NCBI GenBank assembly: GCA_038251965.1
Contig: JBBSAV010000005.1
Span: 1-58,313, forward strand
Source: Candidatus Limnocylindrales bacterium
GTDB lineage: Bacteria; Chloroflexota; Limnocylindria; Limnocylindrales; CSP1-4
DNA length: 58,313 nucleotides
Direction of reading: 5' to 3'
Numbering within the stretch: position 1 is the stretch's first letter; each line of letters opens with the position of its first letter. Of the stretch, positions 2,710 to 53,034 are shown in pieces. The notes below the pieces were generated by a model that made no database searches, was not told the DNA's origin, and saw only the letters and a program-made list of their open reading frames with translations. A program made the translations under genes and the position numbers.

Positions 2710-2880
2710 GATGCACTCAGTGACTCAACGAGCCAAGCAGGGCGGCATTCCGGGCTGTTCGATGCCACCGGCGACTCGGATGGCCAATTATAGGCGTGAT
2801 TTATGCACCACCAGACTCGATCAGCCGACGTTTCGCCCCTCTCGGTGGCCAGCGTGGCCACTTGAGTCGGTGGGGACATC
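2710..2880. repeat. Four-site element: ATG-N8-GACTC-N4-RGCC x4 (three direct, one inverted)
   Basis: Copies start at 2711, 2762, 2803 (+) and 2855-2879 (-). Confidence 0.7.
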
Positions 2881-2890
2881 ACCCTCGACG

Positions 2891-2957
2891 GTGGTGCCTC
2901 CACAGTGGTGCCTCCACAGTGGTGCCTCCACAGTGGTGCCTCCACAGTGGTGCCTCC
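2891..2957. repeat. 14-bp tandem repeat (gtggtgcctccaca) x4.8
   Basis: Perfect units at 2891, 2905, 2919, 2933 and a partial unit at 2947. Confidence 0.95.
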
Positions 2958-2982
2958 GCGGCGACACCTTGGCCGCGTCGGC

Positions 2983-3831
2983 CTACTCGTCGGAGGCCGT
3001 CGCTTCCTCGATCTCGCGACCGAGCTCCTCGGTGCGTCGGTAGGCGGCGAAGACGGCCTCTGACAATACCGTACGCAAGCCGCCCTTCTCCATCGCCGCG
3101 ATGGCGGCAGCAGAGGTGCCGGCCGGTGATGTGACCATGTTGCGAAGGTAGGCCGGGTGGTCTCCGCTGGCCTGCGCCAGCAGCGTCGCGCCGAGCAGCG
3201 TCTCGATCACCAGGTCGTGCGCGATGTGGCGCGGGAAGCCGAGGTGCACCGCAGCATCGATGAGCGCCTCCATGACCAGGAAGACATAGGCCGGCCCGGT
3301 GCCGCTGACGGCCGTGGACATGGAGACGTACTTCTCGTCCTCCACCTGGATCTCCTTGCCCAGGCTCCGCAGCAGCGCCGCTGCCTGCTCGCGCTGCCGC
3401 TCGGTCACCTGTGGCGTGGCGTACCAGACAGTCATGCCCTTGCCCAGTTGTGCGGGCGTGTTGGGCATGGCACGCACGATGGCCTCGTGTCGCAGCGAGT
3501 TCCGCAGCGCCTTGGTGGTGGGCCCGGCCAGGATGGAGATGACCAGCTGCTCGGGGCGCAGCACCGGCGCGATCTGGCGGCCGACCTCGACGAGCATCTG
3601 CGGCTTGATCGCCAGCACCACCACCTGAGCGGCTTCGACAGCCTCTGTGTTGGAAGCCGTGACGGCGATCGCCAGCTTGGCCTGGACCTCTTCACGGCGC
3701 TCGGCACGAGGGTCGCTGGCGATGACCTGGCCGGCCTCGAAGCCATCGACGGCCAGCAGGCCCGCGATCATCGATTCGGCCATGACACCCGTTCCCACGG
3801 TGGCGATGGTCGTTCCATTCAAGGCTGACAC
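2983..3831 (-). CDS. proC: Pyrroline-5-carboxylate reductase
   Basis: GTGVMA, LAIKPQ, RAMPNTPA, TAVSGTGPAY, VTSPAGTS; GTG start 7 nt after TATACT. Confidence 0.95.
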   Translation of the reverse strand: MSALNGTTIATVGTGVMAESMIAGLLAVDGFEAGQVIASDPRAERREEVQAKLAIAVTASNTEAVEAAQVVVLAIKPQMLVEVGRQIAPVLRPEQLVISILAGPTTKALRNSLRHEAIVRAMPNTPAQLGKGMTVWYATPQVTERQREQAAALLRSLGKEIQVEDEKYVSMSTAVSGTGPAYVFLVMEALIDAAVHLGFPRHIAHDLVIETLLGATLLAQASGDHPAYLRNMVTSPAGTSAAAIAAMEKGGLRTVLSEAVFAAYRRTEELGREIEEATASDE

Positions 3832-3889
3832 GCTCGCGAGTATAGGTGGCACGGGGGGCGATGCGGGCGTCACCTGGCCGGCGCGAGCG

Positions 3890-4816
3890 TCACCTGCCCG
3901 GTGCCAACGCCTCCAGCGTCGGTCGCTGCTCAGTGGCGCCATCCGCGGCGAGCGGGATGACCGCGACATGATCGGCACCGGCGGCGTGGTACTCGGCGAT
4001 GCGGGAGCGCACCGTCTGGGCATCGCCCCAGGCCACCAGCGCGTCCACGAGACGGTCGGAATACGGTGGCTCCCAGTCGTGGGCCTCGAAGCCCTGTTCG
4101 GTGAGGCTGTGCTGGTAGTTCTCAGCTCGACAGTAGGGCGTCATCCATGCTCGGCCGGCGGCACGCGCCAGCTCAGGGTCTGGCTCCACGACCGCCGCCA
4201 GGGCGGTCGCCAGCAGCGGCCGCGGCCGGGCGAGCGCCACGGCGTCATCGAGCACGCCACGCATCCAGGCGATCCGGTCGGCGCTGACGAAGAACGGCAG
4301 TGCCCCGTCGGTCTCGGAAGCCGCCAACTCCAGCATGCGGCGTCGGAGTGCGGCGATCAGCACGGGTGGCTCGGTCGACTTCCCGTCGATACCGGTGATG
4401 ACAGGCCCGCGATAGGGCAACCGCTGGTAGGCCGCGAGATACTCGCGCATCTGCGTGAGCGGCTTCTCATAGACGTGACCGCGCAGTTTCTGAACCAGGT
4501 GCACATGCGAGACGCCCAGTCCCAGGGCGAAGCGGCCGCCCGTGAGCTCATGCAACGTCATGGCCCCCATCTTCGCGGCCATCGGGTCGCGACCGAAGAT
4601 GTTGACGATGCTCGTTCCGAGGAGCATGGAGCCGGAGACCTCGGCCACCGCTGCCAGCTGCGCGAATGGATCGCGAGCGGTCCCGTCACCGACCCACAGC
4701 GCGCTGTAGCCGAGCGCTGCGGCGCGGGCCACGAACGGACGCAGCTGCGATGCCGGCAAGTCGGTGAGATGGCCCCAGATCCCGAGTGGGCCGAGGAGCG
4801 TTCGAGGGTCGTCCAT
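3890..4816 (-). CDS. LLM-class (luciferase-like, probably F420-dependent) oxidoreductase
   Basis: GYSALWV, GTSIVNI, GRFALGLGVSH, AGADHV motifs. Confidence 0.88.
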   Translation of the reverse strand: MDDPRTLLGPLGIWGHLTDLPASQLRPFVARAAALGYSALWVGDGTARDPFAQLAAVAEVSGSMLLGTSIVNIFGRDPMAAKMGAMTLHELTGGRFALGLGVSHVHLVQKLRGHVYEKPLTQMREYLAAYQRLPYRGPVITGIDGKSTEPPVLIAALRRRMLELAASETDGALPFFVSADRIAWMRGVLDDAVALARPRPLLATALAAVVEPDPELARAAGRAWMTPYCRAENYQHSLTEQGFEAHDWEPPYSDRLVDALVAWGDAQTVRSRIAEYHAAGADHVAVIPLAADGATEQRPTLEALAPGR

Positions 4817-4846
4817 GGCGATGAGTCTAGGCCTGGTCGGTACCCA

Positions 4847-5740
4847 TCAGGCCGCCGCGATCGCGTGTCCGTACACGAAGGCGTTGCGTGTCTCACCGAT
4901 CTCGACCGAGGCGAACCCGGAGGCAAGGACGGCGCCACGGAGCGACTCCGGATCTCGCGGCCAGAGCGGGCCGGTCGGGCCGCTGATCGGCGCGGCTGCC
5001 GGACCGGCCTGGGCCTCGACGAAGATGAATGTGCCACCGGGCTTCAGCCAGGAGCGTGCCCCCGCCAGCCGGGTACCAAGTGCATCGGCACCCTCGACGG
5101 CACCCAGCAAGTACGCCGCAAAGACGATGTCGACCGCCTTGTCCGCCGCGGCGAGTGGCGAACGCAGATGCAGGTGCGCCAACAGCCCGTGCGCAACCAG
5201 GCGCTTGCGAGCCGCCTCCAGCGATGCGCCGTCATCATCGTAGAGCCACGTTTCGCCTTTCTCGGCGAGCAAGCCGGCCCACCAACCCATGCCGGCACCA
5301 AGCTCGACGATGACGCCGCTCGATATGACCCCATCGAGCCACCGCGTGACCTGCTCCAGCTCCATCGACCAAGGGCCGTCGTGGATGGGGCCGCGCGAGA
5401 AACGGCCGCGGCGCAGATACCAGTCCTCCCAGCCGCCGGCCGAGGCCACCGCAGCCGAGGCCACCGCGGCTGGAGTGCCATCTCCCGCGGCAGTGCCATC
5501 TCCCGCGGCAGTGCCATCTCCCGCGGCAGTGCCATCTCCCGCCGGGACGATGGTCGCCTCCCGGGCTGCGGCCGCTCGCTCGCGCAAGGCCGTGCGCAAT
5601 CGCATCCGCAGGAAGCCGTTGTCATCGGCCCTACCCAGGCATTCGGGACACAGGAGTGCCCAACCCTCCAGGTCGTCGTCGCTGCGGACCTCCCAGGGCT
5701 GTCCACACCAAAGGCAGTCGAAGGCGCGTCGCGGGGCCAT
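4847..5740 (-). CDS. Class I SAM methyltransferase with N-terminal CxxC...CxxC zinc ribbon
   Basis: VELGAGMG motif I, LKPGG; N-terminal CLWC...CPEC; GDGTAA-repeat linker. Confidence 0.8.
   Translation of the reverse strand: MAPRRAFDCLWCGQPWEVRSDDDLEGWALLCPECLGRADDNGFLRMRLRTALRERAAAAREATIVPAGDGTAAGDGTAAGDGTAAGDGTPAAVASAAVASAGGWEDWYLRRGRFSRGPIHDGPWSMELEQVTRWLDGVISSGVIVELGAGMGWWAGLLAEKGETWLYDDDGASLEAARKRLVAHGLLAHLHLRSPLAAADKAVDIVFAAYLLGAVEGADALGTRLAGARSWLKPGGTFIFVEAQAGPAAAPISGPTGPLWPRDPESLRGAVLASGFASVEIGETRNAFVYGHAIAAA
5474..5542. repeat. 18-bp in-frame tandem repeat x3.8 (GDGTAA linker)
   Basis: agtgccatctcccgcggc units at 5474, 5492, 5510, 5528. Confidence 0.9.
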
Positions 5741-5748
5741 CGCGCGGG

Positions 5749-12523: not shown

Positions 12524-12645
12524 GCCGACCGACCGACCCCGCCGAGCAGCCAAGCCGACCCGCCGGGCCCAAGTCAGCCGAGCAGCCGAGCCGCCAACCC
12601 GACCTGCCCGACCGAGCAGCCGAGCAGCCGACCACGACCGACCCC
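12524..12645. repeat. Low-complexity tandem repeats (ccgagcag / ccga)
   Basis: Repeated ccgagcagccga and ccgac units immediately after the rpiB stop. Confidence 0.7.
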
Positions 12646-12652
12646 AGGTCCC

Positions 12653-12819
12653 ACCCGCCCCACGGGTCAAGCGTCGGCACATGGCCTGGGCGCGCCTCGC
12701 ATTCCGCTGCGTCACCCGCTGGCTGGGTGAAACGACGGAGGCTCGGTCGTTTCACCCGTCTGGTGGGTGGATCGACGGAGCAGGCCCGCTAGGTCCGCCC
12801 GATGACCCGTGGCGTGGGT
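12653..12819. repeat. Four-site element: ACCC-N7-GGGT x4 (family shared with 52691-52859)
   Basis: Cores at 12653, 12714, 12754, 12805; 12712-12757 aligns without gaps to 52740-52785. Confidence 0.8.
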
Positions 12820-12958
12820 AACGTAGCGACGAGGATCGCGATCGACCGAGCGCCATCTCCCGAAGCGGGAACCAGCGGGTGAGGAGATCGCGGACCCTTG
12901 CGGGTCTGATCGCTTCCCGCAGCCTCGAGAGCCGCCATGACCTCATCGATCCCCAGAC

Positions 12959-13462
12959 TCACGATGGGGCGTCCGACTCCTGCAACTGCTCGGCGATGGA
13001 CTCCGCCCAGCTTGAGATCTCCGACCACGGCCGGAAGTCGCCTAGCTGGGCCCGGACGAGCGCCACCAGCGCCTTCTCGCTGATCCCCAGGTCGGAACCT
13101 TCGATCTTGCCGGCGAAGAGCCGGTGCCCCCTGGAGCCGATGCGCTTCACCACGCCCGCTACCTCGGCGGGGTTCTCGAGCGGCTTGGGCGGGTCACCGA
13201 TAGGGCCGCTGGAGAAGAGCCATACGCGGAGCCGTTTGAGTTCACCCTCGTGGATGTCCACGAACTCCCGCGCCGAGCGCATCCAGTGGCCGGCATACAC
13301 GCCGCTGCCCAGCACGACCGCGTCGTAGGGGCTGAGGGCGGTGACGTCCTCGATGCGCTTCAGGTCCGCTTCGAGGCCGCTCGAATGCAACGAGGCCTCG
13401 ATGACCTGGCCGATCTCCATGGTGGCGCCGTGCTTGGATGCCACCGCCACAAGGACCTTCAT
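12959..13462 (-). CDS. Flavodoxin-domain protein (HemG-like)
   Basis: ASKHGAT, YDAVVLGSGVY, WLFSSGP, GDFRPW. Confidence 0.85.
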   Translation of the reverse strand: MKVLVAVASKHGATMEIGQVIEASLHSSGLEADLKRIEDVTALSPYDAVVLGSGVYAGHWMRSAREFVDIHEGELKRLRVWLFSSGPIGDPPKPLENPAEVAGVVKRIGSRGHRLFAGKIEGSDLGISEKALVALVRAQLGDFRPWSEISSWAESIAEQLQESDAPS

Positions 13463-18163: not shown

Positions 18164-18239
18164 GCGGGAGAAGCTCAGTTGGTCGAGCGCCAGCCTTCCA
18201 AGCTGGATGTCGCGGGTTCGAATCCCGTCTCCCGCTCCA
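18164..18239 (+). tRNA. tRNA-Gly (TCC), non-canonical at positions 8 and 21
   Basis: Full cloverleaf GCGGGAG/CTCCCGC, anticodon loop CTTCCAA, TTCGAAT T-loop, encoded CCA. Confidence 0.92.
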
Positions 18240-35390: not shown

Positions 35391-36814
35391 CGAACCATCC
35401 TCTCTTCCCCCTCACCGCGCGCGGTGAAGATACTGCGCAGCGTATCCGGTAGGTCCTCCACTGGCTTGGTCTCAAGCTCCTCGAGCGGCGCGGGGCCATG
35501 CTGGATCTTGGCATTCAACAGGTACAGGAACAGGGCCATCAGCAGGACGTAGATGAGCACGAAGCCACCCAGCGAGACCACGATCTCCTCCGCCGAGACG
35601 ACTGGTGAGGTGGCGACGGCGGTGAACATCAACCCATAGACGACCCACGGCTGACGACCGAACTCAGCGACCCACCAACCCATGGTGATGACGAAGAGCG
35701 ACACGAAGACCGTGGACACCACGATCCAGAGCGCCCAGCGGTACTCCAGCAGCTTGCGCTTCCAGAACCACAACCCCGCAGCCATGAGCGCGAAGGGCAC
35801 GATGGCCATGCCCAGCCCGACCATGAGGTGGTACGACTGGAAGGTCAGTTGCACTTCGCTCGGCGGGACATCGGGCGGGACATCGAAGGAGTTGATGCCC
35901 TCTACCGTGTCCTGGCCGCTGAGGAAGCTCAGCAGGCCCGGGATGGCCAGGCCGGTCGTGGTCCCGGCGTCGGTGTCCACCCAGCCGAAGGCATAGGCGG
36001 GAGCATTCTGCTGGGTTTCCCAGATGCCCTCCATGGCCGCCAGCTTGGTGGGCTGGAACTCGGCCACGTTGCGAGCCGATTCGGGGCCGAAGACGAAGGC
36101 ATTGGCGACCGCGAAGAGGATGAAGAATGGGAGCGCGATGGCGAGGGCGGCGCGGCCCAGGTCGGCGAAGTCCTTCTTCTTCAGCACGTAGTACGCACCC
36201 ACACTGGCCACGAACGCCGCGCCCGCGGTCCAGCTTGCGAAGAAGACGTGCAGGATGCGTGGAATGAAGGACGGCGTGAAGACGACGTCCCAGAAGTCGG
36301 TCATGACCGCCCGAGTGGGTAGCGGCAGGTCCTGGACCTGGTACCCCTGCGGGGTCTGCATCCAGGAGTTGGCCATCACGATCCAGAGCGCGCTGAAGTG
36401 CGCCCCCACCACGACCATGAGGCTGGCCCCGAACCACATCCGCGGTCCCAGCCGAGTGCCGCCGAAGAGCATCAGGCCGAGGAAGCCGCCTTCGAGGAAG
36501 AAGGCGAAGACACCTTCGGCCGCGAGGAGCGAGCCGAAGACGTTGCCCACGAAACGGGAGTAGTCGGCCCAGTTCATGCCGAACTCGAACTCCATGACCA
36601 CACCGGTGGCCACGCCCATGGCGAAGACGATGCCGTAGATCTTCACCCAGAAGAACGACAGGCGGCGCCACTTGGGGTCCTTGGTCCGCAGGTACATGCC
36701 GCTGATGACCAGCAGCATCAGGCCCAGCCCCATGGAGAGGGGCGGGAAGATGAAGTGGTAGGTGATCGTCAGCGTGAATTGCAGCCGAGCGAGCAGTTCG
36801 GCGTCCAAACCCAT
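35387..36814 (-). CDS. cydA: Cytochrome bd oxidase subunit I
   Basis: ARLQF...YH, EFEFG.NW, ANSWMQTP, KLAAME, GRQPW. Confidence 0.96.
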   Translation of the reverse strand: MGLDAELLARLQFTLTITYHFIFPPLSMGLGLMLLVISGMYLRTKDPKWRRLSFFWVKIYGIVFAMGVATGVVMEFEFGMNWADYSRFVGNVFGSLLAAEGVFAFFLEGGFLGLMLFGGTRLGPRMWFGASLMVVVGAHFSALWIVMANSWMQTPQGYQVQDLPLPTRAVMTDFWDVVFTPSFIPRILHVFFASWTAGAAFVASVGAYYVLKKKDFADLGRAALAIALPFFILFAVANAFVFGPESARNVAEFQPTKLAAMEGIWETQQNAPAYAFGWVDTDAGTTTGLAIPGLLSFLSGQDTVEGINSFDVPPDVPPSEVQLTFQSYHLMVGLGMAIVPFALMAAGLWFWKRKLLEYRWALWIVVSTVFVSLFVITMGWWVAEFGRQPWVVYGLMFTAVATSPVVSAEEIVVSLGGFVLIYVLLMALFLYLLNAKIQHGPAPLEELETKPVEDLPDTLRSIFTARGEGEERMVR

Positions 36815-37029
36815 CGCCCCCCTCTACGTCTCTGGGCCCAGCGCAGCGGCCGATTCCCACAGACCCCCACGCTCCACACCATCGTGCTCCGGACGTTTCC
36901 TGCCTGGCGCGTGCCGTTCGGCCACCCGATGGCGGGCCGTTCGGCCGCGAGGCTCCCTGGGAGCCAGGCTGCCTCTGGCGCCAGGATGCCTCTGGCGAAC
37001 CGCTTCCAACCGAGGCGTGTCGGTACCGC

Positions 37030-37178
37030 TTCCCGTTCAGCGGGACAACTCGACCCACCTGACGCCTGTTGAGTTCGTCTGTCCCGAACGGCGGGAAGCC
37101 GTGACAGCCTCTCCCGCCAGTCGGTAAGAGTCCGCATCTTCCGCCGCATCCCGGTCGTGTTGTCCCGCCACACGGGAA
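37030..37178. repeat. Left 149-bp four-palindrome element (TTCCCG-N4-GCGGGACAAC family)
   Basis: Motif at 37030 (+) and ending at 37097, 37127, 37178 (-). Confidence 0.9.
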
Positions 37179-37222
37179 CGTGTGCTAAGCCCGGGATAAG
37201 TGGCACCAACCAGCATAGAGCC

Positions 37223-37876
37223 ATGGCAGGGAGCGAACGTCGAGATGATCGAGTCAAGCGGGTCGCGCATGCCGCGTTGACCAACATCGGCCTGGAGATA
37301 CGCCAAGCTCGGCTCAACCACGACCTCAGCCAGTCTCAGGCGGCCGCTGCCATCGGCAAGTCGAACTCGGCATGGAGCCGCATCGAACGCGGGGAGTCTC
37401 CAAAGCTGCCCCTGCTCGATCTCGCCCTGGCGGCTGCCGTGGTGGGACTCGATCTGAACGTGCGCGCCTATCCTGGTGGGAGCCCGGTCCGCGATCGGGC
37501 ACACCTGGCATTGCTGGAACGGCTGAGGGCCTTGTTGGAGCCAACTGTCGGTTGGCGAACGGAGGTCGCACTGCCCAACCCCGGCGACCGTCGAGCGTGG
37601 GATGCCCTTGTTTCACTGCCGTCCATGCGCATCGGGGTGGAGGCAGAGACCAAGGTCCGCGACGCGCAGGAACTGCAGCGTCGGCTCTCCCTGAAACGCC
37701 GCGACGGCGGTGTCGACCACCTCATCCTCCTGCTCGCCAACACGCGACACAACCGCGCCTTCCTCCGAATGGCCGGTCGCGGCTTTCTGGCTGACTTCCC
37801 CGTACCTGGGGCTACTGCGCTAGCTCGACTCTCCGCCGCCGAAGACCCGCTCGGGAGCTCCATCGTGCTTCTCTGA
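37223..37876 (+). CDS. XRE-HTH protein fused to a putative PD-(D/E)XK/Vsr-like nuclease domain
   Basis: IRQARL...LSQ..AA...G.S...SRIERG HTH; C-terminal TEV...AWD...GVEAET acidic motif; CAGCAT-N6-ATG start. Confidence 0.75.
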   Translation: MAGSERRDDRVKRVAHAALTNIGLEIRQARLNHDLSQSQAAAAIGKSNSAWSRIERGESPKLPLLDLALAAAVVGLDLNVRAYPGGSPVRDRAHLALLERLRALLEPTVGWRTEVALPNPGDRRAWDALVSLPSMRIGVEAETKVRDAQELQRRLSLKRRDGGVDHLILLLANTRHNRAFLRMAGRGFLADFPVPGATALARLSAAEDPLGSSIVLL

Positions 37877-37885
37877 GGAAGCCGT

Positions 37886-37964
37886 GCTCGCCGTGGCGAG
37901 ACGCGATGGTATCGCCGTGTGGCGGGACGCGACGGCATTCCCGCGTGGCGGGACGCAATGACTA
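37886..37964. repeat. 26-27-bp tandem degenerate copies of the element's terminal motif
   Basis: gtggcgRgacgc units near 37886, 37912, 37938. Confidence 0.8.
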
Positions 37965-38113
37965 TTCCCGCGTGGCGGGACAACGTGACCATTCGGATCG
38001 GTGAATGCACCGACCTTCCCGGGACGCGGGAAGAACTGACATGCGCTCCCGCCGCGCGGGAAGAACCAGACGGCTGGACGCCCATCCGGTCACGTTGTCC
38101 CGCTCATCGGGAA
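37965..38113. repeat. Right 149-bp four-palindrome element, inverted relative to the left copy
   Basis: Motif at 37965, 38016, 38046 (+) and 38094-38113 (-). Confidence 0.9.
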
Positions 38114-38201
38114 TGGGCGACAGCCGGGGAAGCGGCTCCCGGAGGCGCTGGCGACTCGAACCCGGTGGCGATGCCTCGTGGACCCCGCCGTGTGACGCTA
38201 C

Positions 38202-38474
38202 TCAGAGCGGCAGTGTGGCCTCGCCGGCCGGTCGGACGAGCACCAGGGCGTATGTCACCGCCACGCCATCGTTCATGATGAAGCAGCCGCCCTTGACCGG
38301 GCAGGCCGTACAGCCGGCGTCCTCGAAGACGATGGCCCGCAATCGGCCCCGAGCCACCAGCGTCTCCAGCATGCCTTCGAGCGCCGACTCCTCGATGCCC
38401 AGGTCCCGACTGAGATCGACCAGGCACATCGGTTTACCGGCGTCGCGCACGGCCGACAGGATGGCACTGAGCAT
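38202..38474 (-). CDS. feoC: FeoC-like winged-helix protein
   Basis: LSRDLGIE..ALEGMLE.LV.RG and CTACPVKGGC; downstream of feoB. Confidence 0.75.
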   Translation of the reverse strand: MLSAILSAVRDAGKPMCLVDLSRDLGIEESALEGMLETLVARGRLRAIVFEDAGCTACPVKGGCFIMNDGVAVTYALVLVRPAGEATLPL

Positions 38475-38549
38475 CACGAGCGACCCAAGGTCATCTGGCA
38501 CGCCGCCCCGTCATCAGCCACCCCCGCGTCATCAGGCACACCGGCGTCA

Positions 38550-40253
38550 TCAGGCATACCCCAGGAACGTTCCGATCTGGAAGACCAGCACCGCCAGCAG
38601 CCAGGCCAGGCCCAGCTGGTACAGACCGGAGAAGGCCGCCCAGCGCCAGCCGAATTCGCTGCGGATCGCGGCCAATGTGGCGATGCAGGGCGTATAGATG
38701 AGCACGAACATGACGAAGGCGACGGCGGCCAGCGGTGTGAAGTTGGCTGCCAGCGCGTTGCTCAGTGCGGTCTCCTGTGGGTCTTCGGCATCGCTCGAGA
38801 CCAGGTCCACACCGGGGATGATGCTCAACGTGGAACGGACAGCACCATCGATCGCGGCCACGAAGGAGCTCCCGATCTCACGGATGTCCTCGCCCAGCGA
38901 AGGAGGCGGGACCGCCGCATCGGAGGGCTCGTCACCCACGTACGCCTGTGCCATCGACGTCACCACCACTTCCTTGGCGATGAACCCGGTCACCAACGCT
39001 CCCGAGGCTTCCCAGGTGCCGAACCCGGCCGGCTCGAACACGGGCGCCGCGGCCGCGCTGACCTGGCCGAAGTAGCTGTCGCGCGGCTCTGCCACACCCC
39101 AGGGCAGGTTCATCAGGAACCATAGGCCCACCGACACGATGAAGATGACCGTGCCGGCCTTGACGATGAACTCCTTGGTCTTCTGCCAGGTGTGGGTGGT
39201 CAGCGCCTTCAGTGTGGGCACACGATAGGGCGGCAGTTCCAGCGCGAACACCGAGTCATCCCGTTGGCGCAGGATCGTACGCGACAGCACGACCGCGACG
39301 AAGCCGGCGATGAGGATGCCGATGACATAGAGACCGGTGATGACCGAGGCCGCCGCCGCACCGAAGAAGGCCAGGCCGAAGACGACATACACTGGCAAAC
39401 GAGCCGAACACGACATCAGCGGCACCAGCAGGCTGGTCATGATGCGCTGCGTGCGGTTCTCCAGGGTGCGCGTGGCATAGATGGCCGGCACGGCACACCC
39501 GAAGCCCAGCACCATGGGGATGAACGACTTGCCGTGCAAGCCGGTGAAGCGCATCACGCGGTCCATCACGAACGCCACCCGAGCCATGTAGCCACTGTCC
39601 TCGAGCAGCGTCAGGAAGAGGTACAGCACGATCAGACCGGGCACGAAGACGAGCACGGCGCCGACACCCGCGATGACGCCATCGACGACCAGCGAGACGA
39701 ACCAGTCGGGCGCAGAGAAGAGTTCCAGGATGGCGACGGCCCAGCGCGTGACCGGCCCACCGATGACCGCGTCCACCCAGTCGAGGAAGTAGCCCGAGAC
39801 CTCCACCACCAGCTTGAAGACGATGAACATCACAGCGAAGAAGATGGGCAGTCCCAGGAGCCGGTTGGTCAGGACCCGGTCGAGCCGGTCGGTGACGCTG
39901 TAGCGCGAGACGGCCGAGGTATCGACGACTTCCCGCACGACTCCGTGGACGTAGCCGTAGCGGGCATCGGCGATGGCGATATCGGCCGTGTCACCGTGCA
40001 TCGCCTCGATGCGCCCGCGTCCCGCCTCCGCTATGGCCACGAGGTCGGCACCGTCGTCGCTGCGCCCGACGCGAGCGACGAGGTCGGCCTCCCCTTCCAG
40101 CAGCTTGATGGCCAGCCAGCGCGGCTGAAACGAGCCGGCTAGCTCGGGGTGGGCTGCGATACGCTCGACCAGCGCGGCGATCTCTGCCTCGACCTCACGG
40201 CCGTAGTCGATACGAAAGGAAGGACGATCGGCAGTGCCGACGAACGTCGTCAC
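38550..40253 (-). CDS. feoB: FeoB helical + membrane domain (separate ORF)
   Basis: IADARY, LEDSGYMARVAF, GFGCAVPA, SCSARLPVY, ELPPY, YTPC. Confidence 0.92.
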   Translation of the reverse strand: MTTFVGTADRPSFRIDYGREVEAEIAALVERIAAHPELAGSFQPRWLAIKLLEGEADLVARVGRSDDGADLVAIAEAGRGRIEAMHGDTADIAIADARYGYVHGVVREVVDTSAVSRYSVTDRLDRVLTNRLLGLPIFFAVMFIVFKLVVEVSGYFLDWVDAVIGGPVTRWAVAILELFSAPDWFVSLVVDGVIAGVGAVLVFVPGLIVLYLFLTLLEDSGYMARVAFVMDRVMRFTGLHGKSFIPMVLGFGCAVPAIYATRTLENRTQRIMTSLLVPLMSCSARLPVYVVFGLAFFGAAAASVITGLYVIGILIAGFVAVVLSRTILRQRDDSVFALELPPYRVPTLKALTTHTWQKTKEFIVKAGTVIFIVSVGLWFLMNLPWGVAEPRDSYFGQVSAAAAPVFEPAGFGTWEASGALVTGFIAKEVVVTSMAQAYVGDEPSDAAVPPPSLGEDIREIGSSFVAAIDGAVRSTLSIIPGVDLVSSDAEDPQETALSNALAANFTPLAAVAFVMFVLIYTPCIATLAAIRSEFGWRWAAFSGLYQLGLAWLLAVLVFQIGTFLGYA

Positions 40254-40264
40254 GCCAGCGCCAG

Positions 40265-40804
40265 CTAGGCGACGAGGCGCAGCCGCGCGCGCCCGTGATC
40301 AGCCGGGCCGACCAGGCTGATGGCCGCGTCCAGCAGGTGATCAAGGCCACGTCCGCGGTGGCCGACGGTCTCGACGATGGGGGCGCGGCCGAGCAGGACG
40401 CTGAGCCGTTCGTGATCGATCTTGATGCCCTGCGCACGGGCGCTGTCGCTGACGTTGAGCGCCAGCACCAACGGGATGCCCAGCTCCAGCAGCTGCGCGG
40501 TGAGGTACAGGTTGCGCTCGAGATTGGTGGCGTCGACCACGTCGATGACGGCGTCGGCCTCACCCGTCAGCAGGTAGTCGCGGGTGATGATCTCCTCCGG
40601 CGACAACGCACTCAGGCTGTACGTGCCCGGCAGGTCCACCAGCCGGCCCACGACATCGGCATGACGAAAGGTGCCCTCCATCTTGGAGACCGTCTTTCCC
40701 GGCCAATTGCCCACGTGGTGACGTGAACCGGTGAGGGCGTTGAAGATGCTCGTTTTGCCGGCATTGGGATTGCCCGCGAGCGCCAGGGTCAGGGAGTCGC
40801 TCAT
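40265..40804 (-). CDS. feoB: FeoB GTPase domain (separate ORF)
   Basis: GNPNAGKT, VGNWPGKTV, DLPGTYSL, LERNLYL. Confidence 0.92.
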   Translation of the reverse strand: MSDSLTLALAGNPNAGKTSIFNALTGSRHHVGNWPGKTVSKMEGTFRHADVVGRLVDLPGTYSLSALSPEEIITRDYLLTGEADAVIDVVDATNLERNLYLTAQLLELGIPLVLALNVSDSARAQGIKIDHERLSVLLGRAPIVETVGHRGRGLDHLLDAAISLVGPADHGRARLRLVA

Positions 40805-41181
40805 GCGGCGCTCGCCGTCTCGTCGACGGTTTCGAGAGCCTCCACGATGATGGTCACGGCTTCACGCTTGCGGAGGGACAGGTGATAGCCCTTGATGATG
40901 AACTCCAGTGGGTCACCCAGCGGTGCGGCTCGTTGCAGGGTGATCGTCTCGCCACGAACGACGCCAAGCTCCAGGAGCCTGCGTCGCGCAGCGGGGCGAC
41001 CCCCGACTCGCAGGATGCGGCCGCTCTGGCCACGACCAAGCTCATCAACACCCACGATCGATGCGGCAGCCGGGCAGGACTTGCGGCAACGCCTGGGGAC
41101 CGGACGGCCGAGCGCGAAGGCGCGCGTCAGAAACCGGCAGGATCGATGCTCGCAATCCTGAGTCGGGGAGTCAGGATTCAT
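40801..41181 (-). CDS. feoA: FeoA with Cys-rich N-terminal extension
   Basis: RRLLELG, APLGDPLE, LSLRKREA. Confidence 0.88.
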   Translation of the reverse strand: MNPDSPTQDCEHRSCRFLTRAFALGRPVPRRCRKSCPAAASIVGVDELGRGQSGRILRVGGRPAARRRLLELGVVRGETITLQRAAPLGDPLEFIIKGYHLSLRKREAVTIIVEALETVDETASAA

Positions 41182-41279
41182 ATGCCTATTGCAATCGACT
41201 CGGCGATCGATGGGTAGTGACGTGTGGCCGGTCCACGCGGTCCCTTAGGCACGAAGTCTGGACGCCTTGTGGGTGTGTA

Positions 41280-42404
41280 TCAGGTGGCCTTGACAGATGG
41301 CGACCCGAGTCGCAACCAGAAGCGCGCACCATGTGGCGCCACGTTCTCGGCGCCGGCACTGCCGCCTTGCGCATCGGCCAGCGCACGGACGATGGACAGC
41401 CCCAGGCCTGAGGTGCCTGGCACACGCGCTCGTGCCGGATCAGCACGGTAGAAGCGCTCGAACACGTAGGGCAGGTCTTCAGTGGGGATGCCGGGTCCGG
41501 TGTCACGCACGGCCAAGCGCCCTGCGCCCTCCTCGGGCCAAGCCTCCAGCACGATGCTGCCACCCGCGGGCGTGTGCCGCAGCGCGTTGTCGACCAGGGC
41601 AGCCACCATCTGGCGCAGCCGCTCGCGATCAGCACGAACCAGGACGGGCTCGCCTCCGGACTCGACCTTGACACGCACGCCGGCGAACTGCGCGCGGGGC
41701 CCAAAGCTCTGGGCCACCGCGCCAAGGACCTCGACCGCGTCGACCTCGGCCAGCTGGAGCGGCATCTGCCCCGATTCGGCCAGACTCACGGTGCGCAGAT
41801 CATCGACCACACGCGCCAGCAGGTGTGACTGGTCGCGGATGGTCTCAAGGTGCCGATCATCATGCTCGTAGACGCCATCAAGGATCGCGGTGGTGGTGGC
41901 GTCGATGACGGTGAGCGGCGTCTTGAGCTCGTGCGCTGCATCTTGGAAAAGGCGACGCCGGGCGGCGTCCGAGCGCTCCAGTGCCTGGGCCATGCGGTCG
42001 AAGGAGCGCCCCAGGTCGCCGATCTCGTCGCCCCGCTCAGCCACCGCTGAGCGACGATCGAGGTTGCCGGCAGCGACATCGGCAGCAGCGTCGCGCAGCC
42101 GCCCCAACGGTCGCACCAGTCGCCCCGCCACCAGGAAGCCGAGCACCGACGCCGCGGCCGCCGCGGCCGCCGCGACCAGCACGATGGCTACCGTCGTCTC
42201 CTCCTGCGCGCGCCCAGGGCCGCGCCCTTCGCGAGGACCCGGTCCCAACCCCTGGCCCATGCCTTGCCCGCTGCCACGCGCAGCATCGACCTCGGCCCGC
42301 CGAAAACCCTGGTCCACGATGGCCGGGGTCACCAGCGCGATGGCGCTGCCGGTGACGATGGCCACCAGCGCGAAGATCAGTGCCAGACGGATACGCAGGC
42401 TCAT
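41280..42404 (-). CDS. HAMP sensor histidine kinase (BaeS-like)
   Basis: Two TMs, HELKTPL, DNALRHT, DTGPGI, GLGLSI. Confidence 0.93.
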   Translation of the reverse strand: MSLRIRLALIFALVAIVTGSAIALVTPAIVDQGFRRAEVDAARGSGQGMGQGLGPGPREGRGPGRAQEETTVAIVLVAAAAAAAASVLGFLVAGRLVRPLGRLRDAAADVAAGNLDRRSAVAERGDEIGDLGRSFDRMAQALERSDAARRRLFQDAAHELKTPLTVIDATTTAILDGVYEHDDRHLETIRDQSHLLARVVDDLRTVSLAESGQMPLQLAEVDAVEVLGAVAQSFGPRAQFAGVRVKVESGGEPVLVRADRERLRQMVAALVDNALRHTPAGGSIVLEAWPEEGAGRLAVRDTGPGIPTEDLPYVFERFYRADPARARVPGTSGLGLSIVRALADAQGGSAGAENVAPHGARFWLRLGSPSVKAT

Positions 42405-43084
42405 CGCCGAGCGGCTCGGTAGCCGACGCCACGTACGGTCTCGATGTAGTCGCCTCCAGCGGAGGGCCGGCCGAGCTTGCGGCGCAGGTTCTTGACATGA
42501 CTGTCGATGGTGCGGTCGTCGGCCTCGAAGGCCTCGCCAAAGATGCGCTCACCCAGTTGGCCTCGGCCGAGCACCGTGCCCGGTCGCTCGGCGAGCGTGG
42601 CGAGGAGGTCGAACTCGACACGGGTGAGGGGGATATCGACATCGCCACGTCGGACCTCACGGGCGTCGGAGTCGATGGTGAGGTCGAGGAAGGCGCGAGC
42701 GAGGGGAAGTGCGCGTGACTCATCGAGGCGCCGCAGGATCGCGCCGATGCGAGCCACCAGCTCACGCGGCTCGAAGGGCTTGGTGAGGTAGTCGTCGGCA
42801 CCCATCTCCAAGCCGGCCACTCGGTCGATGACGTCGTCGCGCGCGGTCAGCATGATCACGGCGCTGTCGATCCCATCCGCGCGCAGCTGCCGCAGGACCT
42901 CGAAACCCGAGCGACCGGGCAGCATCACATCGAGGACGAGGACATCAGGCTGGGTCGAACGTGCCAGCTGGTAGGCCTGCTCGCCATCGGCGGCCGTATC
43001 GACCCGATAGCCCTCACGCACCAGATAGGCGCTGACAACCTGGGTGATGTGGGGTTCGTCGTCGACGACGAGGATGCGGACCAT
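42401..43084 (-). CDS. OmpR-family response regulator
   Basis: VVDDE, LDVMLP, GADDY.TKPF, ETVRGVGY. Confidence 0.95.
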   Translation of the reverse strand: MVRILVVDDEPHITQVVSAYLVREGYRVDTAADGEQAYQLARSTQPDVLVLDVMLPGRSGFEVLRQLRADGIDSAVIMLTARDDVIDRVAGLEMGADDYLTKPFEPRELVARIGAILRRLDESRALPLARAFLDLTIDSDAREVRRGDVDIPLTRVEFDLLATLAERPGTVLGRGQLGERIFGEAFEADDRTIDSHVKNLRRKLGRPSAGGDYIETVRGVGYRAARR

Positions 43085-43165
43085 GGGGCGTCGATGGTAC
43101 GTCGAAGGCCGGGAACAGTGCCGGCCTTCGAGCGCGAACGTACAGGTCGTGGTGCGAGCGACCGT

Positions 43166-44032
43166 CTAGGACAGGCTCTCGAATGCCGCCTGGTGGTAGC
43201 CGCTGGCGGTCAGCAGGTGCGAATACATGTTGAAGACGTCGAGTGCGGTCTCATCGAGCCCGACCATGCGCTGTTCCAGGTCGGCGATGTCGGCGACCTC
43301 GATCTGGACGGCAGCAGCCAGGGCTTCATCCAGGCTCGTCGAGCCCTGGGCGATGAGGTCGGTGTAGAGCTGCTGCAGGCCGGCGTCTCTCAGCTCGCCT
43401 TGGGCGAGGTCCGCCGTGGGGTCATCGATACCGTAGCGTCCGAGGATGGTCCCGACTGCGACCTGGTGGCGCGCCTCCGACATGGCGATACGCTCGAACG
43501 TGGGCAGGTCGTACAGCTCCGCGAACGCCATGTAGACATCGTGTGCCAGCTTCTCTTCGTTGGCCATGAAGACGAGTCCCGCGATGTCGTCGTCGGTGAG
43601 CGTACCCATCTCGAACAGGCAGTCTTCGCACGCCTGCGGGCCGCGAACCGTGTCGCTGTCCCAGCCGCGGCCCGCGCCCACGCTAGCGCTGCCGTTGCGA
43701 CCCTGTCCCGCACCGCGCTCGTCGGTGTCGCGTGCCGGGCCGCCCCTGTCATCGCCACGGCGCGCCTGGCTTCGGCCTTGGTCTTGTCCGGCGCGCGCTT
43801 GGACCTGCCCACCACCACCGGCGTTAGCGGCTGTATCGGTCCGTGTACCGGAACCGTCCCGCGCACGGGCCTGCCGCTGCACCTGGGCCTGGTCGTTGGG
43901 GCAGTCGGCGTCACAAGCGCCCGCGCCGGGCCCTGGGCCCTTGGCGAAGGCCGCGGTCGGCGCCAACGCGGAGGCGGTGAGTGCCAGGGCTGCCGAGAGG
44001 GCAAGGATGTTGCGAGACGAGCGGATCTGCAT
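43166..44032 (-). CDS. Secreted DUF2202 ferritin-like protein
   Basis: Signal peptide, Gly-rich region, EEKLAHDVY, SEARH, IEVADIADL. Confidence 0.82.
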   Translation of the reverse strand: MQIRSSRNILALSAALALTASALAPTAAFAKGPGPGAGACDADCPNDQAQVQRQARARDGSGTRTDTAANAGGGGQVQARAGQDQGRSQARRGDDRGGPARDTDERGAGQGRNGSASVGAGRGWDSDTVRGPQACEDCLFEMGTLTDDDIAGLVFMANEEKLAHDVYMAFAELYDLPTFERIAMSEARHQVAVGTILGRYGIDDPTADLAQGELRDAGLQQLYTDLIAQGSTSLDEALAAAVQIEVADIADLEQRMVGLDETALDVFNMYSHLLTASGYHQAAFESLS

Positions 44033-49226: not shown

Positions 49227-49229
49227 GGG

Positions 49230-50059
49230 CTACGCGGCCGCCCTCGCGGATGCTGGCAGCGCCATCTCGTCGTCGGTCATCTGCGCCGGTGTGGCGCCGG
49301 TCATGATGGCCACCGCCTCCGTCATCGTGTGCGACTGCGGGGTGACCACGGCCACGCGCCGTCCCAGGCGGTGGATGTGGATGCGATCGGCCACCTCGAA
49401 GACGTGTGGCATGTTGTGGCTGATGAGGATCACCGGGATGCCCCGGTCGCGAACGTCCTTGATGAGCTGCAGCACCTTGCGCGACTCCTTGACGCCGAGC
49501 GCGGCCGTGGGCTCGTCCATGATGATCACACGCTGCCCGAAGGCCGCCGCCCTGGCCACAGCCACGCCCTGCCGTTGGCCGCCGGAGAGTGTCTCCACGG
49601 CCTGGCTCATGTCCTGGATGGTGAGCAACCCCAGATCGGACATCTCCTTGCGCGCGGCCTCGCGCATGCCGCTGAGGTCGAGCATGCGGAAGACCGAGCC
49701 GAGGATGCCCGGCTTGCGCCTCTCCCGACCCAGGAAGAGGTTCGTACCGATATCGAGTGCCGGACAGATGGCGAGCGTCTGGTAGACCGTCTCGATGCCG
49801 GACGCCATCGAATCGCCCGGCGAATGCAGGTGGACCAGCTCCCCGTCGATGTAGATCTCGCCCTCATCAGGGATGACTGCGCCACTAAAGCACTTGATGA
49901 GCGTGGATTTTCCGGCGCCGTTATCGCCGATGACCCCCAGCACCTCACCCGGATAGAGCTCGAGATTGGCGCCGTCGAGCGCGACAACGCGGCCGTAGTT
50001 CTTGACCAGCCCTCTCGCCTGCAGCGTGGGCGTCGGGATGTCCTTGGTCGTGGCGACGG

Positions 50060-50063
<4 letters not shown>
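49230..50063 (-). CDS. Monosaccharide ABC ATP-binding protein (FrcA-like)
   Basis: GDNGAGKS, GIETVYQ, LSGGQRQ, MDEPTAALG. Confidence 0.92.
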
Positions 50064-51145
<1,082 letters not shown>

Positions 51146-51216
51146 GCCGTACCCCTCATCACTGTGCCCTCTCCGGGTGTCGTGTGCACGACTCCAAGCG
51201 TAGATGATAGATATGT

Positions 51217-51246
51217 GAACGGGGTGGCTGTGAGGCCACCCCGTTC
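51217..51246 (-). terminator. Intercistronic hairpin after the sugar SBP gene
   Basis: gaacggggtggc ... gccaccccgttc 12-bp perfect stem. Confidence 0.7.
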
Positions 51247-51264
51247 GACTGTGCTAGCGGGCGA

Positions 51265-52377
51265 TTACGCGGTGCCCCAGCAGTTCTCGAGACCCCAGGT
51301 GCTGTCCTCGGAGGGGACGCCTTCCTGCGGGTCGTTGGTGATGAGCTCGACGCCCGTGTTGTAGATGTCGTTGCCCTCGACGTAGTACGGGCTGTCCTGC
51401 GGGGACGGAAGCTCGCCGGTCATGGCGTTACGCACGGCCCAGTCGACGCTGAGCTCGGCCATGCGGGACGGGAACTGCATGGACGTGGCATCGATGATGC
51501 CGTTCTGCAGGTCGGTCACGCCGGCGCAGCCGCCGTCCACCGAGAGGACCAGCACATCGTCAGACGTCTTGCCGGCGGCTTCGAGGGCCTGCATCGCGCC
51601 CGCTGCGGTGGGCTCGTTGATGGTGTAGACGACGTTGATATCCGGGTTCTTCTGGAGCAGCAGCTCCATCGCCTGGAGGCCACCCTCCTGGTTGCCGTGG
51701 CCGATTTCCTGGCCGGCGATGCGCGGGTCGGTCTCGTCGCCCCACATGTTGATGTCGCCGACGTCGACGCCGAAGCCCTGCAGGAAACCCTGGTTGCGCT
51801 GCACGCCGACGATCGGCTGGGACGGGTCGATGTTGATGAGGCCGATCACGGCGTCCGCCGCCGCGTCGCCCATCTTGGCCTTGGCCCACTCGCCGATGAG
51901 GAGACCGGCCTGGAAGTTGTCCGTGGCGAAGGTCATGTCGACGGCATCGGCCGGATCGGTCTTGGTGTCGATGGCGATGGTCATGAGGCCCGCCTCACGC
52001 GCCTGATCGATGGCCGGCGTGACACCGGCGTTGGCCGGCGCGATGATGATGGTGTTGGCGCCGCGAGAGATGGCGTTCTCGATGCAGGTGGTCTGGCCCT
52101 CGGGATCGGGATCCTGGACACCCCAGCAGGCGTGCAGGTTGGCCCCGAGCTTCTGGGCCTCGGCCGTCGCACCGTTGATCTGCCAGACCCAGAACGGGTT
52201 GATGTTCTCCTTGACGATGTACTCGATGTCGACGCCGGTGCCGTCGAGCGCCATGTCACTGGCGGCAGGCGACTCGTCCTGGGCCACCACGGCGGCAGTG
52301 CCGAGCGCCCCTGCGGTCAGCGCCACGGTCGCGGCGATCACGGTCAGCCGCATGAAGCGGCTTCGGGAATGGGTCAT
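51265..52377 (-). CDS. Monosaccharide ABC substrate-binding protein (FrcB-like)
   Basis: Signal peptide; NPFW, FATDN, YTINEP, SVDGGC, NCWG. Confidence 0.9.
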   Translation of the reverse strand: MTHSRSRFMRLTVIAATVALTAGALGTAAVVAQDESPAASDMALDGTGVDIEYIVKENINPFWVWQINGATAEAQKLGANLHACWGVQDPDPEGQTTCIENAISRGANTIIIAPANAGVTPAIDQAREAGLMTIAIDTKTDPADAVDMTFATDNFQAGLLIGEWAKAKMGDAAADAVIGLINIDPSQPIVGVQRNQGFLQGFGVDVGDINMWGDETDPRIAGQEIGHGNQEGGLQAMELLLQKNPDINVVYTINEPTAAGAMQALEAAGKTSDDVLVLSVDGGCAGVTDLQNGIIDATSMQFPSRMAELSVDWAVRNAMTGELPSPQDSPYYVEGNDIYNTGVELITNDPQEGVPSEDSTWGLENCWGTA

Positions 52378-52441
52378 CGCTTGAGCGAGCCTCCTTGTTT
52401 GCTCCGACTGCCTGGGTGACAGCCTCCTCCCGTTGTCATCC

Positions 52442-52453
52442 GACAACGTTGTC
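52442..52453. promoter_or_regulatory. LacI-family operator 1
   Basis: Perfect palindrome GACAACGTTGTC upstream of the SBP gene. Confidence 0.8.
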
Positions 52454-52504
52454 TGGCACGGTAGTCCTCGGCCGATGTCGATGTCAACTGTCACGTGGGT
52501 CGTG

Positions 52505-53034
52505 TGTCGGAGCTCAGCGATGAGGTCACGACCAAGGGGACAGGGTCTTCGTCACGCTCGTATTCATGGACACGAGCGAGACCATCAGCCTGGACGGCCC
52601 GACACAGCGACGTCACGCCATCCTCACCTGTCTGGTGGTCGACGAGCTGACGATCGATGAGGCGGCGACCAGCCTGGGGCGCTCGGCCCGACCCATGGGG
52701 TGGGTCATCCGACGAAGCTTCGCGCGTCGCTCTGCTGTCTCACCCATCGGGCGGGTGAAACGACAGAGCAGCGGTCGTTCTACCCACCCGGGTGCATGGG
52801 ACGACGACTCGGTGGGCCGCAGCGGTCCCCGGCTCCGCTCACTCACCCATGGGGCGGGTCGCAGGTGACACCGTGGCACCTGGGCGCGCTGGAACCCCGT
52901 CTCGGGCCAGCAGGCGCCAAGCCGGCGGCCGGCCACGACTGGAGGCCGGCCGTCGCTGGAAGCGTGACGCGGCGAGGGGGCCCAAGTGGCAGGATCGCTG
53001 TCCGTCGGGCGGCCGGTGTCACTGTCCCCGGACA
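52505..53034 (+). mobile_element. Internally deleted ISNCY/IS1202-like relic
   Basis: TGTC...GACA ends with internal CAG.GA/GGACAG repeats; N-terminal ETISL...RR..IL..LV..ELT..EAA..LGRS.R and C-terminal KPAAGHDWR fragments. Confidence 0.6.
52691..52859. repeat. Four-site element: ACCC-N7-GGGT family
   Basis: Cores at 52691, 52742, 52782 (degenerate), 52845. Confidence 0.75.

Follow-up and report, generated by a model that had tools for sequence, protein, structure and literature searches.

Putative REPIN-RAYT-like partnership between helically phased palindrome arrays and XRE-nuclease-like paralogues in a Limnocylindria-like Chloroflexota genome

Here, we describe a putative protein-repeat system in a 58,313-nucleotide stretch of DNA from Candidatus Limnocylindrales bacterium (GenBank assembly GCA_038251965.1, contig JBBSAV010000005.1, positions 1 to 58,313, forward strand; hereafter the window). 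The window is contig C5 of G000, a metagenome-assembled genome of an uncultured soil or sediment bacterium of the Chloroflexota (Limnocylindria-like; 3.14 Mb, 207 contigs, 67% G+C, 88.7% complete). Its intergenic regions carry short arrays of palindromic sites set whole helical turns apart, and one pair of arrays flanks a gene for a 217-amino-acid protein, P0002, which joins an XRE-type helix-turn-helix (HTH) domain to a domain with a restriction-endonuclease-like predicted fold. The phased architecture of the arrays, their dispersal, their lineage-specific expansion, their adjacency to paralogues of this gene and the grouping of half-sites with recognition helices are observed across the genomes described below. 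We consider it probable that arrays and genes form a system comparable to that of the doublets of repetitive extragenic palindromes (REPs) known as REPINs and their dedicated transposases (RAYTs), but with a different class of enzyme. A more specific reading, held tentatively and somewhat short of likely, is that of an independently evolved, vertically inherited partnership in which at least 10 half-site specificities coevolved with phased duplex elements that the protein assembles on and cuts.

An earlier note on this DNA had suggested that the arrays are nonautonomous elements, each family read by its own HTH-nuclease paralogue assembling a phased complex. That interpretation is supported, and the three grounds on which it might have been abandoned (spacing lost in genome-wide copies, no association with HTH-nuclease genes, and descent from known RAYT- or insertion sequence-derived repeats) all came out in its favor.

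RESULTS AND DISCUSSION

Palindrome arrays share a helically phased architecture

G000 contains at least 65 arrays of palindromic sites, assigned to family A (14 arrays), family T (11), and family B (40), as well as about six copies of family C and about 10 loci of family D. In the window, the family A site (TCCCG-N5-CGGGA) has eight exact matches against 0.24 expected, a number reached in none of 100 shuffles, and the family B site (ACCC-N7-GGGT) has seven against 0.99 expected. Family T (TTGCA-N5-TGCAA) follows the same 51/30/51 layout as A and was not visible to the earlier note in the window. Family C is built from a 17-bp near-palindromic unit (GAKKC-N7-GMMTC), and family D from TTGCS-N5-SGCAA with ACGTAACTGAC-type ends. 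The arrays of the window, the gene between two of them and the tandem repeats beside them are as follows (arrays and repeats are given without strand; spacing in bp):

2710..2880: family C array, 17-bp sites starting at 2710/2761/2802/2864, spacing 51/41/62
2883..2971: 14-bp tandem repeat, 5 copies, directly abutting the C array
12541..12631: 44-bp tandem repeat, 2.1 copies, abutting the B1 array
12653..12819: family B array B1, sites at 12653/12714/12754/12805, spacing 61/40/51
37030..37178: family A array A1, sites at 37031/37082/37112 (one mismatch)/37163, spacing 51/30/51
37223..37876, plus strand: HTH-nuclease gene encoding P0002 (217 amino acids), an open reading frame (ORF) between A1 and A2
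37892..37994: 26/27-bp tandem duplication that repeats the outer-left A site and gives an extra site at 37939
37965..38113: family A array A2, sites at 37966/38017/38047/38098, spacing 51/30/51
52691..52930: family B array B2 (abundant subfamily), sites at 52691/52742/~52782 (degenerate)/52845, spacing 51/40/63

The spacings first read for A (51/30/51 in two copies) and for B (61/40/51 and 51/40/63) hold, A1 by way of its one-mismatch site and B2 by way of the degenerate site that splits its raw 51/103 into 40 and 63. For C, the array is indeed regular, but the spacing of 51/41/52 was not correct: the GACTC motif (2722, 2773, and 2814, with GAGTC at 2864) gives 51/41/50, and the true 17-bp unit gives 51/41/62. 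This GACTC geometry occurs at four loci of G000 against about 0.0015 expected. The outer sites of the window C array carry a AACGAGCCAAG-type inward extension; other copies lie on contigs C36, C166, C182, and C11 (two), and the orthologous locus in the sister genome G201 also has a C array. B1 has an additional palindrome at its center, GAAACGAC-N9-GTCGTTTC, and B2 ends in a conserved tail of about 70 bp common to other copies; at least 13 other contigs carry arrays with about 85% identity to B2.

Helical phasing and the conservation of spacing were borne out genome-wide. Among the 178 gaps between neighboring sites in the 65 A, T, and B arrays of G000, 91 are of 51 bp, with further peaks at 30 bp (11 gaps), 40/41 bp (14), 61/62 bp (20), 71/72 bp (5), 81 bp (8), and 102 to 104 bp (14). 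The best-fitting period is 10.20 bp (about 10.3 had been claimed), and at 10.2 bp per turn the gap classes of 30, 40.3, 51, and 61.6 bp correspond to 2.94, 3.95, 5.00, and 6.04 turns and those of 71.5, 81, 91.5, and 102.4 bp to 7.01, 7.94, 8.97, and 10.04 turns. A family-blind scan for pairs of palindromes with the same stem returned a 51-bp peak at every stem and loop setting that yielded pairs.

The A and T elements are each about 149 bp long and two-fold symmetric, running from an outer site through a spacer to an inner pair of sites 30 bp apart around a GnACTGAC center, followed by the mirror image. Their outer sites with inward extensions read TTCCCG-N5-CGGGA-CAACGTGACC in A and TTGCA-N5-TGCAA-CATCTCGACC in T, and the two families have in common the outer site followed by CAnCnnGACC, the inner pair around GnACTGAC, and GGAAC. 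In A, the most common base has a mean frequency of 0.95 within half-sites but only 0.52 at the central N5 positions, 0.61 across spacers, and 0.52 in the flanks outside. Conservation is limited to the half-sites and to the inward extension within the short terminal inverted repeat, while spacer lengths are nonetheless exact. The arms of these terminal repeats span 26 to 27 nt and are 85 to 88% complementary; A1, itself two-fold symmetric, has 26-nt repeats of the form TTCCCG-N5-CGGGACAACnnGACC, and in A2 they are 27 nt long and 85% complementary. Inspection by eye of 11 A copies showed no target-site duplication. Because the spacers are free in sequence yet exact in length and the layout is shared, A and T look, from their sequences, like homologous elements in which all eight half-sites were switched together. 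The earlier statement that spacers diverge while spacing is kept describes A well, but fits T and the B2 subfamily less, their spacers diverging less than those of A. B and C arrays are spaced 51/40-41/61-62, and B arrays contain 1 to 7 tandem 51-bp units. Copies of the B2 subfamily are about 85% identical across some 250 bp, including the tail past the last site, a likeness that points to recent copying.

Every site is also a potential 5-bp stem, which raises the possibility that the palindromes act as single-stranded DNA or RNA hairpins (REP-like, terminator, or attenuator). As single-stranded DNA, the whole of A2 folds through pairing of its terminal repeats (z = −5.9); both halves of a site change together between families with palindromy kept, and the preference of arrays for gaps between convergent genes (see below) recalls REPs. 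Against this, the stems are conserved in sequence without covariation within a family, the spacers of the two arms are not complementary, and length variants step by about 10 bp, as helical turns would and as hairpins do not require. At gathering score, no Rfam family matched any array, and a scan for promoter and terminator consensus sequences (window 36800-38300) gave no match and no terminator-like runs of T. The neighboring protein, moreover, has an HTH of the kind that binds double strands, and we regard hairpins as a very unlikely explanation. The 10-bp center-to-center distance between half-sites, the free centers, the noncovarying stems, and the whole-turn length variants instead favor HTH dimers that would bind duplex DNA on one face of the helix.

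Arrays are intergenic and disrupt assembly

Crude gene calls based on G+C content at third codon positions (GC3; n = 2641) place 64 of the 65 A, T, and B arrays between genes. Among the 44 arrays with both flanks called, 15 lie between convergent genes (154 of 788 background gaps; p = 0.03) and five between divergent genes (196 of 788; p = 0.046), an enrichment and a depletion, respectively. The arrays break the assembly, as 21 of 65 sit at contig ends (within 300 bp; 2.6 expected). In the probable source sample, one contig covers window positions 36554-41933 without differences, and contigs break between 52594 and 53155, at B2.

Short tandem repeats abut 18 of the 65 arrays, compared to 3.8 ± 1.8 (maximum 9) when positions in other intergenic gaps were drawn at random 200 times, which extends to the genome the correct observation that such duplications adjoin four of the five array loci in the window. 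The fifth had been placed at a deletion junction, which is borne out only in part: a deletion of about 640 bp does lie beside an array, but at B1, not B2. There, G000 lacks about 640 bp to the right of B1 (window 12830-12960) that are present in G201 and in a second relative, G202, as a minus-strand gene.

On contig C3, an IS3-type transposase ORF (integrase core; C3:2124-3395) lies between two B arrays (C3:1710-2081 and C3:3711-3981) and is not bounded by their ends; the ORF after it has an apparent N terminus running through 51-bp repeats.

Close paralogues are flanked by their own array families

G000 encodes four close paralogues of the HTH-nuclease gene, 43 to 66% identical to the window protein and to one another, and each of the four has a different array family of its own beside it (A, T, C, or D). 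A arrays stand on either side of the window gene on C5; downstream of the C108 gene, at a distance of 79 bp, lies a complete T array (sites at 4116/4167/4197/4248); the C11 gene is followed directly 3' by a C array; and two D motifs, 1108 bp from each other, enclose the C60 gene. As a background, an A, T, or B array lies within 300 bp of 90 of the 2641 called genes. Beside the window gene, there is no adjacent methyltransferase or toxin gene. The analogy to REPIN-RAYT systems without an HUH transposase, as first put forward, also withstood scrutiny: Y1_Tnp (PF01797) has no match in the 88.7%-complete genome, whereas 6 of 14 control genomes have matches.

P0002 combines an XRE-type HTH with a nuclease-like domain

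The N terminus of P0002 is an XRE-type HTH (Pfam HTH_31, 35.9 bits against a cutoff of 27; HTH_3, 31.4 against 23), closest in structure to C.BclI, C.AhdI, and HipB. The C-terminal domain (residues about 90-217) is restriction-endonuclease-like in its predicted fold. An AlphaFold2 model built on a 30-sequence alignment (mean predicted local distance difference test score [pLDDT], 88.3) gives this domain an alpha-beta-beta-beta-alpha-beta topology (H92-104, E110-116, E125-132, E135-142, H148-162, and E166-171; pLDDT about 90). Residues 93-217 of the model were compared by VIA-align with 48,161 PDB representatives and aligned with AF1548 (1y88; Z 9.2, 101 residues, root mean square deviation 2.9), XisH (2okf; Z 8.7), the NucS nuclease domain (2vld; Z 8.2), 3dnx (Z 8.0), Card1 (Z 7.8), VC1899 (Z 7.6), and Can2 (Z 7.5), scores that are moderate, best values of Z 7 to 8 being common for models without true matches. 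We take all of these chains to be restriction-endonuclease-like folds. Foldseek with the whole model returned HTH matches only.

E114 and D127 are invariant across 69 representatives (at most about 50% identical), and D122, E142, Q149, K158, and D161 are nearly so, with E140/E142 among the conserved positions. Two further observations join the moderate structural scores in tempering this assignment: searches of Pfam (with 1 and 69 members), NCBIfam, PADLOC, and PDB sequence profiles gave no match to the C-terminal domain, and the position after E142-T, where the catalytic lysine is expected, is K144 in P0002 and R in most relatives. Given the predicted fold, the moderate Z scores, and this variation between K and R, we regard the domain as nuclease-like and probably active rather than proven. 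One database contains at least 547 relatives of P0002 at E ≤ 1e-5, and in a second the relatives form at least 1085 clusters at 50% identity; the 150 listed of the latter have the same architecture throughout, and relatives, where named, are called XRE-family or helix-turn-helix transcriptional regulators. A search of the ESM Atlas for the C-terminal domain returned only unnamed Chloroflexota clusters. GC3 is low in two of the four paralogues (0.729 in the window gene and 0.737 in C60:8172-8822; genome mean, 0.835 ± 0.040), which places both at or below the 1.1 percentile of the crude gene calls.

In an alternative reading, XRE regulators would use the arrays as clustered operators, those beside the gene serving autoregulation and the solo ones forming a regulon, and the C-terminal domain, no longer active as a nuclease, would serve in dimerization or as a sensor. 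In favor of this, A1 stops 45 bp short of the ATG of the HTH-nuclease gene, on its upstream side; the HTH resembles those of controller proteins and HipB-type repressors, which bind paired palindromic operators, and most relatives have R in place of the expected K. However, arrays also lie 3' of the gene, solo arrays favor convergent gaps and are depleted in divergent ones, the families show lineage-specific expansion and tandem amplification of units, and E114, D127, and E142 are invariant or nearly so. Overall, an operator function is quite unlikely.

Half-sites group with recognition helices across the class

We searched 201 genomes of the class, including the unpublished G096 and G159, and found the protein in 114, usually in 1 to 6 copies per genome. 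It is confined to two families, occurring in 54 of 60 genomes of f1 and 59 of 66 of f4, and was not found in f3 (0 of 66) or f2 (0 of 7). A detector of pairs with the same half-site, applied to 41 homologue loci including the window, found such a pair within 450 bp of the gene at 16 loci (36.7 kb searched) and farther off at six (107.8 kb); one of these six is an artifact of a masked N run in L012, which gives false pairs, and two are extensions of near arrays. The L003 gene, at a locus syntenic with the window, lies between two T arrays, one of them degenerate; L002 has two T arrays after the gene; L005 has A-like arrays on both sides; and L041 (G081, family f4) has ACCCG arrays on both sides, spaced 51/62 and 51/61. 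Other homologues adjoin pairs of GTGCG, GTGCA, TTGCG, TTGCC, ATACG, GAACG, or GCACG half-sites.

Half-site type groups with protein clade and with recognition helix. G[KR]S.SAWSR is paired with TCCCG, G[IV]S.A[ST]WSR with TTGCA, LS.[SQ]QVSR with GTGCG (four of four), and SGSEVGR with A/CCCCG.

Large array expansions occur only in f1 and f4 and are lineage-specific. G000 has 63 pairs of B sites at 51 bp, against none in 60 other f1 genomes; G201, which lies outside this sample, has B sites at about 20 places. Pairs of TGCR-N5-YGCA at 51 bp, tallied across the class with the unpublished genome G091 included, are present in 19 of 60 f1 and 18 of 66 f4 genomes, with 46 in G018 and 30 in G039. In f3, five of 66 genomes (G037, G082, G085, G091, and G157) have one or two matches each, all of them versions of a single conserved sequence that resembles a cysteine-rich motif repeated within coding DNA and not an array.

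With both gene adjacency and helix pairing in view, the arrays can be weighed as ordinary miniature inverted-repeat transposable elements (MITEs) or BOX-like repeats of an unlinked conventional transposase, the HTH-nuclease genes sitting in quickly evolving, repeat-rich intergenic spots or traveling as passengers. Terminal inverted repeats of 26 to 27 nt, element sizes of 150 to 500 bp, and a variable number of internal 51-bp units all fit this view; an IS3-type transposase ORF does lie between two B arrays, the 21 arrays at contig ends behave as multicopy repeats do, and most arrays are far from any HTH-nuclease gene. Yet the family-specific adjacency at four of four close paralogues recurs elsewhere with other half-sites, and half-sites covary with the helix of the neighboring protein. 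Family A conserves only its palindromic half-sites, and at helical-turn spacing, which is unexpected from neutral decay of a MITE; target-site duplications, as noted, were not seen. We therefore consider this explanation unlikely.

Array turnover at loci shared with relatives

The window gene locus, the one locus compared in this way, is in the same place in three species, being syntenic with G201 (flanks about 90% identical) and G202 (about 80%). In G201, the 5' half of the gene and both arrays have been lost and a remnant of one site is left, and G202 has a T-clade gene with T arrays, versus the A-clade gene with A arrays in the window. This difference between G202 and the window would reflect either replacement of the cassette or differential loss of old duplicates.

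Solo arrays that persist between G000 and G201 include B1, B2, C, and an A array on C33. The G201 orthologue of B1 has kept its half-sites with five of the seven central bases of site 2 changed, and the locus of B2 in G201 also has an array; G202, whose intergenic region at this locus is compact, lacks 555 bp there, array included. A decayed remnant of the outer-right end is present in G202 at an A locus of C8, and A arrays retain perfect sites at loci common to G000 and G201. At the locus orthologous to window 2640-2995, L057 of G202 (2128-2622) has, in place of the C array, tandem repeats of about 25 bp (GATCCCGCC.TGGAC-type) followed by short palindromes, which may be another repeat type at the same intergenic spot.

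From the perfect A sites at loci shared with G201 and the decay at one locus in G202, sites appear to be maintained in situ, as would be expected if arrays were host-selected, immobile sites for chromosome organization or defense (loading sites or decoys for a guarding nuclease); synteny of the gene in three species fits the same idea. We nevertheless find it highly improbable, since PADLOC defense models match nothing beyond the HTH, the number and family of arrays differ greatly between close genomes, and the full-length identity of about 85% among B2 copies implies recent copying.

A candidate mechanism and its weakest link

We propose that the arrays are short nonautonomous intergenic elements of about 150 to 500 bp, whose functional parts would be 15- to 17-bp palindromes separated by whole helical turns: four per array, in occasional cases three, and a larger number in B, where the 51-bp unit is amplified. 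Each family would be the cognate DNA partner of one 217-amino-acid paralogue (XRE HTH plus PD-(D/E)XK-type domain), encoded by a gene that is single copy per specificity and flanked by arrays of its own family. HTH dimers would read the 5-bp half-sites, and several dimers on one helix face would form a compact complex over the element, so that nuclease domains could cut at or near the element ends; repair of the cuts may then copy arrays, expand them, or move them elsewhere, with short tandem duplications left at their sides. Cutting by the complex, followed by repair that copies or moves the element, is suggested by the fused endonuclease-like domain, by 51-bp units that have been amplified, by tandem duplications where arrays end, and by the recent spread of the B2 subfamily. 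The logic would be that of REPIN-RAYT, with another enzyme class and double-stranded sites. DNA binding, complex formation, cleavage, and mobility of the arrays are what we infer from this combination of features.

Besides the doubts about the nuclease domain given above, several points weigh against this proposal. Binding, cleavage, and transposition are deduced steps, and the copying step is the weakest link, with no strand-transfer enzyme evident and no target-site duplication seen; a PD-(D/E)XK nuclease alone cannot join strands, so mobility would need host repair. The grouping of helices with half-sites is partly common descent, kin having both gene and arrays, and the pair detector found no array at 25 of the 41 homologue loci, including the close relatives L001 and L004. 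More distant paralogues in G000 (on C6, C31, and C3) have no arrays in their flanks. Arrays also outlive the gene: all HTH-nuclease copies found in G201 (L060, L062, and L064) are truncated or frameshifted, and A, B, C, and T arrays remain. Finally, the earlier claim that each family has its own paralogue stands for A, T, C, and D (four of four) but not for B, the most abundant family, for which no cognate gene was found in the G000 assembly. In G201, contig C3 encodes a distinct, frameshifted paralogue (58% identity to the C11 protein) with a B array (62/40) immediately upstream. The sequence on the other side of this paralogue matches, at 91 to 93% identity, the terminal 1.1 kb of C89, a G000 contig that breaks off about 50 bp beyond the flanking gene, so a B-linked gene may lie in the assembly gap after C89.

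Other features of the window

In addition to the arrays, the window contains one tRNA gene, the only feature to pass the Rfam gathering score:

18164-18239: tRNA-Gly(TCC)

In the probable source run, summed contig word depth rises to about 306 across window positions 42611-43211, against about 15 to 55 in most other bins, and many loose ends fall within this segment at 42753-42822. The segment may be common to many other organisms or may be a repeat.

Significance

REPIN-RAYT has so far been the main example of a repeat population living with a dedicated, single-copy, vertically inherited enzyme. If our proposal is true, a second such system has arisen from an unrelated enzyme, and the lifestyle of repeats with a dedicated enzyme has appeared more than once. 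The matched recognition helices and 5-bp half-sites (TCCCG, TTGCA, GTGCG, ACCCG, and others) would then form a natural series in which to follow specificity switching, and a protein family now annotated only as XRE transcriptional regulator, with at least 1085 clusters at 50% identity, would gain a function. The arrays break short-read assemblies of an abundant soil and freshwater lineage, and G201 would provide a natural test case for the decay of arrays after loss of the gene.

Comparison with known systems

The C-terminal domain of P0002 resembles XisH, the excision factor of the fdxN element, as well as AF1548 and the nuclease domains of NucS and Card1/Can2, at the level of fold only (Z 7.5 to 9.2); there is no detectable sequence similarity, and the domain partners differ. 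Controller proteins of restriction-modification systems and HipB-type repressors bind as dimers to adjacent palindromic operators and provide the closest HTH structures (C.BclI, C.AhdI, and HipB). In contrast to their operators, the arrays have four sites each and number dozens per genome, and the HTH is fused to a nuclease-like domain.

Pneumococcal BOX elements and the bacterial interspersed mosaic elements (BIMEs) of E. coli are modular repeats with a variable number of internal units and fixed linker lengths. The arrays are similarly modular, with 1 to 7 copies of the 51-bp unit in B, but differ in sequence, in unit lengths quantized at 10.2 bp, and in having a cognate neighboring gene. 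The Correia elements of Neisseria are MITEs with long terminal inverted repeats, and elements of this type share with the arrays a length of about 150 bp, terminal inverted repeats of about 26 nt, intergenic location, and many copies. Unlike them, the arrays repeat the terminal palindrome internally at fixed helical phase, conserve only the sites in A, and are linked to a non-DDE protein, with no target-site duplication seen at the 11 A copies.

The closest likeness is to the REPIN-RAYT systems of Pseudomonas and enterobacteria. Searches of the literature on REPIN/RAYT in Chloroflexi, Limnocylindria repeats, XRE-PDDEXK proteins, and Chloroflexota MITEs found no description of these repeats or of their pairing with a gene. 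One study describes RAYTs as short single-copy genes flanked by their own repeats, with one gene per repeat family, very different copies within a genome, repeats dispersed intergenically, and a gene locus kept in relatives (PMC3337134). The system described here likewise has a gene flanked by its own repeats, a distinct gene for each of families A, T, C, and D, paralogues that differ strongly within a genome, dispersed intergenic copies, and a gene locus shared with related genomes. It departs from REPIN-RAYT in three ways. First, an XRE HTH with a restriction-endonuclease-like fold takes the place of the HUH/Y1 transposase. Second, its elements comprise four 15- to 17-bp palindromes (51/30/51 or 51/40/62), whereas a REP is an imperfect palindrome of 20 to 40 bp occurring in inverted pairs. 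Third, its sites appear to be duplex, as opposed to the single-strand hairpin of REPs, and the A ends read TTCCCG...CGGGAA with no GTAG/CGTC head, the motif given for REPs in a second study (PMC3733652). Lacking both the HUH enzyme and the REP hairpin, the system is not a REPtron, but it would work like one.

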